Source: Escherichia coli O157:H7
GTDB taxonomy: Bacteria; Pseudomonadota; Gammaproteobacteria; Enterobacterales; Enterobacteriaceae
Length of the DNA: 64,000 bases
Strand: one strand, 5' to 3'
Assembly (NCBI RefSeq): GCF_013167455.1
Contig: NZ_CP038328.1
The stretch's first letter is position 1; every line of letters begins with the position of its first letter. Positions 24,001 to 27,000 of the stretch are shown piece after piece. The position numbers were made by a program.

Positions 24001-27000
24001 GACATTTTTACAACATTGTCAGTGCATTAAGGCGGGATGTTTTGGGCTGACGCCAGTCCAGTTTATCGAGGAGCATTGCCAGCTGCGAGCGGGTAATGGA
24101 TACCTTACCGTCACGCACCGCAGGCCAGATAAACTGGCCTTCCTCCAGACGTTTGGTGAACAGGCACAGACCATCAGCATCAGCCCACAGAATTTTAATC
24201 GTGTCACCCCGTCGGCCGCGAAAGATAAACAGGTGACCGGAGAAGGGGTTCTCATCCAGCACATGTTGTACCTGTTCTCCCAGACCGTTGAAGGATTTAC
24301 GCATATCAGTAACGCCGGCAACCAGCCAGATTCGAGTGCCTGATGGGAGCGAGATCATCGTCCCCTCCCGGTCAGTTCACGGATCAACACCGTGAGCAGC
24401 TCTGGTGAAGGATTTTCCAGCGTCATGTTACCGTGGCGGAACTCAACTTTACAGGAACTGGCACTGACTGTGCTTTGTGAAGGAGTGGATAAAAGCGGAG
24501 TAAGAGCCGCCATAGGCTCTTTCTGCTCATCAGGCGTTATCTCAACAGGTAATAATTCAACGCCAGCGCCAGAAGAGGTTGTTACCGGAAGACGCCGCGA
24601 TATACGCCTTTCGTTCTGCCAGAGCCTGAGCCATTTGAACAGGAGGTTATCATTGATATCGTGTTCCCGGGCAATACGGGCAACAGAGGCTCCTGGTTGT
24701 GAAGCCAGTTTAACCATTTGAAGTTTAAACTCATTTGAAAATGATCTGCGGGGTTCTGAGGATAATATTTTCTGTTCCATAACAGGTGTCCACTAGTTGA
24801 AAAGGTGGGCACCTACGTTACCAATACTGGCTTAATGGCTACATACGGCGGTCAGTTTACGCTTACGAGAAAGAAGCGGTCCGCCGGTCGTCTGTTTTGA
24901 CTCGCAGACCGGACGGGCCCTCAGATATCCTGAGGCCTGGCTGCAGGGCTGGTGTGGCGGTACGCTGGTGAGTGACGGATACAGCGTGTACAAATCTCTG
25001 GCGGATAATGACCCCGGTATTACATCTGCCTGTTGCTGGAGCCACGCAAGGCGCGGTTTCGCAAATCTGTATAAGGCCAGCAGGGAGCCCCGTGCAGCCA
25101 TGGCGCTGAGAAAAATCGCGGGTCTTTATCGCATTGAGAAGTTCATCCGTGAACGTCCTGTGGAAAAAATACGGCAATGGCGACAACGGTATTCCCGGCC
25201 GATAGTGAATGACCTGTTTGCCTGGCCTGAAGAGCAGGAGCCGTGCTGTCCGCCCGACGGACCACTAAACAAAGCGATTAATTATATCCTGAACCGGCGC
25301 GATGAACTGAGCTGCTTCCTGAGTGACGGAGCCGTGCCCCTGGACAACAATATCTGCGAGCGTGCTATCCGCCCGGTGGTCATGGGGCGGAAAGCATGGT
25401 TATTCGCCGGTTCACTGATGGCCGGGAACCGCGCGGCACAGATAATGAGCCTTCTGGAAACGGCAAAACGTAATGGTCTGGAGCCGCATGCCTGGCTGAC
25501 AGACGTTCTGACGCGTCTACCGGAGTGGCCGGAAGACCGACTGGAAGAGTTGCTGCCCCTTGAGGGATTTACCTTCTCCGGGTGAGTGATACCTGCCATC
25601 AGGTGTTCGTGCAGCGGGCCATAACCCGCAGTCGGGAGTTGAACGCCTGACGACAGGAAATGAGCCAGAGCAGCGACCACGCGGGCTGACAGTGAGTCAG
25701 AACCTGAATCAGCCCGGAGCCATTCCCGGGGCTGTACTTCATCACCTGCCATCAGTACCCGTGTCAGTACTTCGCGACCTGACGCAATTACCCGACTCAG
25801 TTCTTCAGAACCCGCCTCCGATACCAGCCTGGCGGTCGCCCCTGTGCAACAAAATAAATCAACCATCGTCAGACGGTGATCAATCGTATGCGCTGCCAGT
25901 GGCTCGCCTGAAAAATGCGTCAATATGAGTTCGCCGGAACAATACCTCAGTTCTTCAGAACCCGCCTCCGATACCAGCCTGGCGGTCGCCCCGGCGCAAC
26001 AGAATAAATCAACCATCGTCAGACTGCGATCATTCGTATGCATCGCTGATGATGCGCCCGAAAAACGCGTCAATATGAGTTCGCCGGAATATTACTGACG
26101 ACACGGTTTGTAGTTACGTTCCTTCGGTGAGTGAGTACCTGTGCGTCAGGGTAACGCAATCAGTTCAGGTTTAGCGGGGTGTCAAGTCGGTTTGGCTAAC
26201 CGACCGCAGAATTAACTGTACCTTTAAAGGTCGCCCCCGATATATCTGCCTGTCAGACATATCGCCGATTCGGTATCTCACTACATAAAACTCCTTAAAA
26301 AACAATGCGATTCTGTTGGTACGAAGCTTTCAGTAAGTCAGTCCGGAGAAGCGCCAGTACGATACAGAATGAGGTTGAAAAAAACGTTCACGTCTGGTCA
26401 CTTCTTCAAATGTTAAAAAACATCTCGTAAAGAGCCAGTTTATGCGGGTTCGTTGAGTAGACGTGCGAGCGTCACTTTGTCAGCTTTAACGCTGACGAAA
26501 GTGACGCCCGCACAGCTTCAAACTCCACATGCACACGCAAGCGACCAAATTTCAAATGGTCTTATGCCGTGCGCACAGTCATAAGAAGCGCATGCGGAAA
26601 GTCAGAAAATATCTTAAGACGCAGATTTTAAAGGCGTTTTTATGCCAGTCTGCCGGGAATACACAGTAGTCCGGTTGTCCGGAAGCACCACGGTAATCCG
26701 AAGGAAAAATCAACGTACCTCAATCACCGTAGTGATATCCGTTCCCAGAGGCTAAACGGATGTACCACCATAAAGGCATCCTCTTTCAGGCTACGAGGAT
26801 ATTGCAATCACCCGAAGGCGTTTCTCTCAGATTGCTGAAACATTGGCTGGCAGTCACCCGAAGGCGTCCCTCTCAGACTGCTGGAACATTGGCTGGTCGC
26901 AAAAGCGACAGTTAATGCAAATACAGGTTAACAAAAAGGGAAATCTGCCGTCAACCCAACCATATGAACATGTTGATTTCATTATGAATGTGATGTTCTA

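Follow-up and report, generated by a model that had tools for sequence, protein, structure and literature searches.

Insertion sequences of the IS66 family (ISEc49 group; compare IS679 and ISEc8/IS682) carry the genes tnpA, tnpB and tnpC with IS66 domains, are bounded by imperfect inverted repeats of about 27 bp, for which a GTAA start is typical according to the IS66 and IS679 literature, and are flanked by 8-bp target duplications. Two other kinds of described structure resemble the locus studied here. Nested or abutting insertion sequences leave scars in which a terminal fragment lies against a related intact end, the target duplication and the original flanks are lost and nested elements are found nearby. 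Variable-number and slippage repeats are arranged in a head-to-tail register and can be polymorphic between one and two copies. The stretch of Escherichia coli O157:H7 DNA that was analysed (64,000 nucleotides, here called the window) corresponds to the tellurite/urease island of O157:H7-type strains and contains a tandem repeat beside an IS66-family gene cluster. The comparisons described below indicate that this tandem is very probably the right-end joint of two related IS66-family elements, and as such an ordinary mobile-element scar.

Results

Geometry and genomic context of the repeat

A first-pass annotation had reported a two-copy tandem direct repeat of 150 bp, and both a repeat search of the window and TRF recovered it. 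In the repeat search, 25796-25945 and 25946-26095 form a head-to-tail direct repeat of exactly 150 bp with two copies at 87% identity, and TRF reported 25796-26089 with a period of 150, 2.0 copies, 88% matches, 0% indels and a score of 469. The coordinates given there, 25797-26096, are shifted by one base from the natural register, 25796-26095. The identity of about 95% that had been given was too high, as copy 1 and copy 2 agree at 130-131 of 150 positions (about 87%), with a BLAST E-value of 1.35e-48 that is far beyond chance. Unit positions 1-47 are identical between the copies and all 19 differences fall within positions 48-147. The location just 3′ of the interrupted IS66 tnpC was also correctly described, since 210 bp separate the outer tnpC stop codon (25585) from the start of the repeat.

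The first-pass annotation had named an assembly artefact, with long reads showing a single copy, as the finding that would overturn its description. Beyond the general risk that repeats carry in assembly nothing speaks for such a collapse or expansion, and its probability is negligible: the identical two-unit sequence is present in about 448 independently assembled complete-genome records from many laboratories and in five metagenome contigs, and the 19 differing positions allow reads to place the copies unambiguously.

The segment 25500-26400 is 100% identical in many complete genomes of O157:H7, O145 and O111 strains. PGAP annotates the identical locus in the order terW; IS66 tnpA, tnpB and split tnpC with an 'IS682 family' element; hok/sok; type-B L31; and the ure genes. 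The following features flank the IS66 cluster.

20575-20676, plus strand: end of an IS21-family (ISSso4-like) element, comprising its first 102 bp, which include four direct repeats of 18 nt in subterminal position, and cut short by the IS66-family left end
26130-26283, minus strand: EFASI (Rfam; 48.9 bits, below the gathering score of 51.2)
26759-26910, minus strand: STAXI (Rfam; 134 bits)

The remainder of the IS21-family element is absent from the window. Copy 2 is the outermost right terminus of the cluster and adjoins the EFASI/STAXI module, the flank on the EFASI side beginning with TGACGACACGG... A pair of 21-nt direct repeats was observed at 25569-25589 and 26114-26134, and a possible similarity between the region after tnpC and EFASI reached a score of 37 (shuffled sequences: mean 26.7 +/- 4.3, maximum 45).

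As EFASI starts only 35 bp away on the minus strand, the units might be taken for part of the EFASI/STAXI module, as a structured RNA or a repeat with a regulatory role. No Rfam family was matched on the units at E<=1 in the searched interval 24500-29500, EFASI, STAXI and sok lying beside the repeat without overlapping it; moreover, the units accompany the element on unrelated plasmids, and the EFASI module of pGF43-E occurs without them. A role as RNA is thus highly improbable.

Assignment of the units to IS66-family right ends

The possibility that the repeat is part of an insertion-sequence terminus had been raised before, together with the suggestion to compare the unit with the ends of IS66-family elements. 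This comparison was carried out, and the unit corresponded to the right end of such an element: each unit matches its last 150 bp, in which the right inverted repeat is contained. The features assigned in this way are listed below.

25796-25945, plus strand: copy 1, the 150 bp that form the native right end of the resident mosaic IS66-family element, ending ...GAGTTCGCCGGAACAATAC
25919-25945, minus strand: right inverted repeat of copy 1, GTATTGTTCCGGCGAACTCATATTGAC on the minus strand, aligned with other lineages
25946-26095, plus strand: copy 2, the last 150 bp of a canonical element (here called A-type), ending ...GAGTTCGCCGGAATATTAC and reading GTAATATTCCGG... on the minus strand
26069-26095, minus strand: right inverted repeat of copy 2, GTAATATTCCGGCGAACTCATATTGAC on the minus strand, beginning with GTAA

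The best local alignment of the right inverted repeat of copy 1 to the left end of the element was found at 20676-20703 with 21 of 28 positions identical.

A search of a plasmid collection with 25300-26200 as query retrieved dozens (about 50) of IS66-family copies, each with a single unit, whose homology ended at window position 26095/26096. In three of the plasmid copies, located on unrelated backbones (the IncI-gamma/K plasmid pRK1 of E. coli W and two IncF plasmids), the common segment was exactly 2773 bp long; it begins with GTAATGTTCCGGGGAACTCATCTTCACAG and finishes with ...GCGTCAATATGAGTTCGCCGGAATATTAC. On the left, the plasmid copies read GTAATGTTCCGGGG... (also given as GTAATGTTCCGGGGAACTCATCTTCAC), and on the right ...GCCGGAATATTAC. 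Target duplications of 8 bp were present in two of these three copies (L006, GTTTTCTG; L008, CACATAAC), and no target duplication was found for the third (L007). The TnpC of the plasmid copy matched the Pfam families DDE_Tnp_IS66 (1.2e-90), DDE_Tnp_IS66_C, zf-IS66 and LZ_Tnp_IS66, its TnpB matched TnpB_IS66 (3.4e-35), and the PGAP annotation agrees with a tnpA, tnpB, tnpC organisation. The shared 2773-bp segment, the 8-bp duplications and the IS66 domains together identify a bona fide IS66-family insertion sequence. Copy 2 is identical at 150 of 150 positions to the right ends of L007 and L008 as well as to the single unit of L003, and it is therefore the canonical right terminus, with an inverted repeat ending at 26095.

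Of 5426 E. coli genomes, 2858 contain more distant homologues of the unit, with as many as 14 sites in a single genome, as expected for an insertion-sequence terminus. One of them lies in the KpLE2 region of K-12, where the homology again ends at ...CCCTTAC. The same boundaries recur in independent contexts, namely in three plasmid contexts for the canonical element and with at least four different flanks for the ends of the second lineage described below (B-type). Judged from the sequence comparisons, both units are the right termini, each consisting of an inverted repeat of about 27 bp and about 120 bp of subterminal non-coding DNA, of a 2.77-kb relative of ISEc49. IS683 of pHNSHP45 was also considered; it showed no BLAST similarity and is a different member of the IS66 family.

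Open reading frames across the units

Two open reading frames run through the repeat.

25282-26073, minus strand: open reading frame that is no gene, 263 aa, TTG start, spanning both units and continuing antisense to tnpC
25925-26098, plus strand: 57-aa 'hypothetical protein' WP_000097913.1, called by PGAP in some genomes

The minus-strand frame with its internally repeated peptide exists as described in the first-pass annotation, where it had already been judged artefactual. One might nevertheless suppose that the repeat codes for a protein in which a 50-aa block recurs, namely the 263-aa or the 57-aa product, as 150 bp equal 50 codons, the frame is open across both units and PGAP calls the 57-aa protein. 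This is highly doubtful on several grounds. Searches against Pfam and NCBIfam families gave no match for the minus-strand frame or for both plus-strand frames. Among natural variants of the element, indels of +1, -1, -2, -5 and -43 nt occur in the 510-nt non-coding tail, and such frame-breaking changes mean that the 263-aa frame is not conserved. Its distal third runs antisense to tnpC. The 57-aa frame has its start codon within the copy-1 inverted repeat, covers copy 2, crosses the element boundary and stops 3 nt past the element end, so that it exists only because of the duplication. The 263-aa frame and the 57-aa protein are accordingly artefacts, in agreement with the earlier verdict on the former.

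The outer mosaic element and its nested insertion

Copy 1 terminates a larger element, which is itself interrupted by a second one.

20677-25945, plus strand: outer IS66-family element with tnpA (20764-21093), tnpB (21080-21421) and two pieces of tnpC (21503-22333 and 24848-25585)
20677-20705, plus strand: left inverted repeat of the outer element, GTGTCGTTACGGGGAAGTCATCTTCACAG, ISEc49-like
22334-24866, minus strand: nested IS682-like IS66-family element interrupting tnpC, with an 8-bp duplication (GAGAAAGA) at 22326-22333 and 24867-24874

The left boundary at 20677 follows from independent chromosomal relatives that begin at window positions 20676-20678. Strain 2013C-3277 lacks exactly 2541 bp at the site of the nested element. 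The outer element has a mosaic structure, with segments that are ISEc49-like, A-type or B-type. Of its first 120 nt, 87 agree with the A-type and 114 with a chromosomal element labelled 'ISEc49 family' by PGAP; this label comes from a relative with 73% nucleotide identity. The element alternates in blocks at sites that distinguish A (L007) from B (L012); these assign, for example, 25072-25366 to A (24 sites), 25378-25708 to B (28 sites), 25715-25839 to A (19 sites) and 25843-25940 to B (18 sites). Copy 1 itself is composed of A-type sequence at positions 1-47 and B-type sequence at positions 48-150.

Comparison of the 8-mers flanking the window element (GCATCCTG on the left; on the right CTCAGTTC after copy 1 and TGACGACA after copy 2) revealed no target duplication of the outer element. 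The missing duplications of the outer element, of the plasmid copy L007 and of the B-type copy L018 fit a later rearrangement. With the truncated IS21-family end on the left, EFASI/STAXI on the right and no duplication, the flanks were not contiguous before the insertion, which implies a deletion or recombination during or after the events that built the cluster. No other fragments of an A-type element were found in the 64-kb window, and this argues against a left half displaced by inversion.

With tnpC split by the IS682-like element, the locus is to be considered functionally inert debris, the sole conceivable activity being that a transposase acting in trans might use either right end.

Origin of copy 1 from a B-type lineage

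Copy-1 sequence was found at >=99% identity in 448 records of complete E. coli genomes, and copy 2 was present in every record sampled. Between about 91% and 99% identity no copy-1-type matches existed in the complete E. coli genomes, and among the sampled rows of these genomes no copy-1-type end lay outside the tandem arrangement; such ends were found in metagenome contigs. Contigs of metagenomes and of GTDB genome bins were scanned with a 22-mer specific for copy 1. Twelve metagenome contigs matched: five contained two units as in the window, one (L021) was cut off inside the unit, and six carried a B-type right end with other flanks. Contig L012, part of a GTDB genome bin, shares 94% identity with the window element and stops exactly at the element end, ...GGAACGATAC.

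In L022, one of the six metagenome contigs with other flanks, the element end stands free beside unrelated DNA and agrees with copy 1 at 149 of 150 positions, including both the ...CAATAC tip and the A-type first 47 nt. Closely related B-type ends were present in L012, L016, L018, L024 and L025. L018 represents a full-length B-type copy in which both ends start with GTATCGTTCCGG... and for which no target duplication was found; the B-type elements measure roughly 2730 bp. The missing duplication of L018 counts against the reading of the tandem as a joint of two element ends, as does the tip of copy 1, which reads GTAT... instead of the family-typical GTAA..., although the free-standing B-type copies likewise read GTATCG...; the GTAT(T/C)G starts of copy 1 and the B-type copies and the GTGTCG start of the left end in the window are degenerate variants. 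The match to L022 and the B-type ends at other places indicate that copy 1 is the native terminus of a separate lineage and no decayed duplicate of copy 2.

Copy-number polymorphism

A comparison of the copy number across strains, as had been proposed in the first-pass annotation, was performed on 570 E. coli genomes with the junction between the element and EFASI, and it yielded both two-unit and one-unit alleles. The two-unit allele occurs in about 440 records (O157:H7, O145, O111 and UMNK88), in which the junction matches over 851 nt in two pieces. The one-unit allele, with a contiguous match at >=99%, occurs in 135 records, the sampled ones being O26, O103 RM8385 and 2013C-3277. Copy numbers seen were one or two, bearing in mind that a query for a three-unit junction cannot separate contiguous from split matches. 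The locus is hence variable in unit number across E. coli lineages, as had been supposed, although as an insertion-sequence scar and not as a variable-number tandem repeat.

Aligned with the window, O26 RM10386 shows an exact gap of 150 bp and few SNPs, and it has kept the nested IS682-like element. Strain 2013C-3277 has one unit, is without the IS682-like element and carries a recombination patch at 24913-25366. The single unit was copy 2 in every one-unit allele examined, which is the product expected of recombination in the identical first 47 nt of the two units. Over the island as a whole, O157, UMNK88 and O26 differ by few SNPs per 6.5 kb.

These data bear on the proposal of a recent slippage duplication, according to which 150 bp would have been duplicated in situ by slippage or another replication error, after which the copies diverged. 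The exact head-to-tail register, the lack of indels and the identical first 47 nt are what this process would leave. However, a recent duplication should not diverge more than its flanks, and it was rejected on this point: the copies agree at only 131 of 150 positions next to near-identical flanks, that is, they are 13% apart while the flanks differ by <0.5% between strains and the island by few SNPs per 6.5 kb among O157, UMNK88 and O26. Each copy furthermore matches separate element ends, copy 2 being 100% identical to the ends of plasmid elements and copy 1 identical at 149 of 150 positions to an independent element end, and the differences between the copies track the lineage-specific A versus B sites. 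Slippage is therefore very unlikely to have produced the tandem.

A second alternative assumes that the one-unit allele is ancestral and that a B-type element supplied copy 1 later, through templated insertion or gene conversion. It requires a similar number of events by parsimony, and the one-unit, IS682-free allele of 2013C-3277 could be read as ancestral. Against it, a junction would already have to exist before homologous recombination could bring the outer tip of a B-type inverted repeat up against position -150 of the same element; the upstream A-type block starts 81 nt before the unit (25715) and so was not copied from copy 2; and L022 demonstrates that the chimeric unit already existed as a free-standing element end. 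We regard this order of events as unlikely. As duplication of a one-unit allele cannot create a B-type terminus, the two-unit form would most simply be ancestral at the locus, followed by at least two independent deletions of 150 bp. The one-unit alleles (O26, O103 and 2013C-3277) would then be later deletions by recombination within the shared 47 bp.

Discussion

Formation of the junction

The order of events and the mechanism of transposition and deletion are inferred as follows. The resident element would have become attached by its tip (25945) to a second element, of A-type and adjoining EFASI/STAXI, at position -150 of the latter, and the period of 150 bp would merely be the distance from this joint to the A-type end. 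A joint between a tip and an internal target is a transposition-type product, unlike those of homologous recombination or slippage, and the kinship and common orientation of the two elements give it the appearance of a tandem repeat. Two routes may be envisaged. In the first, the resident element would have inserted 150 bp from the A-type right end, and the left 2.6 kb of the A-type element would have been lost later. In the second, the resident element would have been located in the IS21-family terminus and undergone intramolecular transposition (adjacent deletion) with a target inside the A-type element, a single step that would eliminate the intervening DNA together with the target duplication. 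No precursor allele or intermediate, such as an intact A-type element beside EFASI with the second element elsewhere, was found.

A more specific reading is that the tip joined at position -150 without a target duplication records adjacent-deletion transposition by an IS66-family element, or else that elements of this group preferentially insert into the ends or the interior of other insertion sequences. In the window and in contig L016, independent insertions of the same IS66 group lie 6 bp apart in the same IS21-family terminus, and these, together with the insertion of the IS682-like element in tnpC, may reflect a target preference of IS66 elements for other insertion sequences. We put this reading forward tentatively and consider it rather improbable; if true, either version would bear on the transposition mechanism of the IS66 family, which is poorly characterised, and on its target choice.

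Consequences for annotation and typing

In hundreds of O157:H7, O145 and O111 genomes the stretch is left blank or annotated with a spurious 57-aa protein. A proper annotation would consist of two IS66-family right termini, with the outer boundary of the insertion-sequence cluster at 26095 and the end of the resident element at 25945. Furthermore, the unit number could serve as a PCR-sized marker that splits the alleles of the tellurite/urease island into those of O157/O145/O111 and those of O26/O103.

Comparison with known systems

The feature is a known kind of object, namely IS66-family termini at a meeting point of insertion sequences, and it offers nothing fundamentally new on the function of the element. 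Like other members of the IS66 family, the window element has the tnpA-tnpB-tnpC organisation with IS66 domains, and both units have the form of the right terminus of that family. It differs from them in having two right termini in tandem, from two lineages, and in lacking a target duplication; its left inverted repeat is degenerate (GTGT...) and its tnpC disrupted, so that it is a dead composite and not a functional element. Variable-number and slippage repeats share the head-to-tail register and the polymorphism of one or two units; here, however, the units are 13% divergent and derive from separate lineages, and the copy-number change is best explained by homologous deletion, not by stepwise slippage. 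With nested or abutting insertion-sequence scars the locus has in common the terminal fragment against a related intact end, the loss of duplication and flanks, and the nested elements nearby. It differs from them in that the elements that meet here are related and in the same orientation, so that the scar resembles a tandem repeat and was flagged as one.

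Variation within the outer IS66-family element

At window position 21419, within the accessory gene tnpB (21080-21421), the window and O157 carry T, whereas G is found in the comparison alleles of UMNK88, O26 and 2013C-3277, and the length of tnpB in the PGAP annotation is 342 nt in the window versus 381 nt in these other strains. Therefore, tnpB of the outer element appears to be shortened, in addition to the split of tnpC. In the one-unit, IS682-free allele of strain 2013C-3277, 33 SNPs are clustered in the 3′ part of tnpC (equivalent to window 24913-25366), while the rest of its island is near-identical. 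This patch indicates a gene-conversion tract from another element copy, which supports frequent recombination among these IS66-family elements.

A further relative, the 2168-bp contig CAJFMZ010000230.1 with a B-type end, is 94% identical to the enterobacterial IS66-family element of the window and was assigned to a chicken-gut MAG that carries the label 'uncultured Sellimonas sp.' (Firmicutes); the assignment probably results from a binning error and not from cross-phylum transfer.

IS21-type sequence at the left flank

The left flank is formed by the following feature:
20575-20676, truncated IS21-family (ISSso4-like) left end

It contains four 18-nt direct repeats (CGATCAnnnTTTGGCATC) with a spacing of 22-24 nt. 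A B-type IS66-family element adjoins similar IS21-type terminal sequence in metagenome contig L016 (approximately 1081-1145), oppositely oriented and with its junction 6 bp from that of the window. The IS21-type terminus may be an insertion hot spot.

The hok/sok neighbourhood

A toxin-antitoxin locus of the hok/sok type is present on the minus strand:
near 28660-28800, minus strand, hok/gef ORF
28790-28948, minus strand, sok (50.5 bits, short of the gathering score of 59)

Fragments of a TraT gene, a transposase and an autotransporter are located between this locus and ureG. Taken together, these features make this part of the island look like what is left of the leading region of a conjugative plasmid or ICE.

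The EFASI/STAXI module at the right flank

Two RNA motifs were identified beyond the right end of the element, EFASI being located about 480 nt downstream of STAXI:
26130-26283, minus strand, EFASI RNA motif (48.9 bits, E 9e-8; slightly below the gathering score of 51.2)
26759-26910, minus strand, strong STAXI motif (134 bits), including a 46-bp tandem repeat at 26804-26896 (TRF)

The EFASI-containing sequence (26095-26626) is matched with 96% identity by positions 2201-2735 of the 4.4-kb plasmid pGF43-E, where the segment occurs without any insertion sequence. This homology starts exactly at the terminal base of the IS66-family element (26095/26096), which seems to reflect either an independent boundary of the EFASI module at this position or acquisition of the plasmid segment from a copy flanked by the element.

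According to the Rfam description as quoted in PMC12370729, EFASI usually follows STAXI and precedes an integrase; in the window, its downstream neighbour is the IS66-family right end, 35 bp away.
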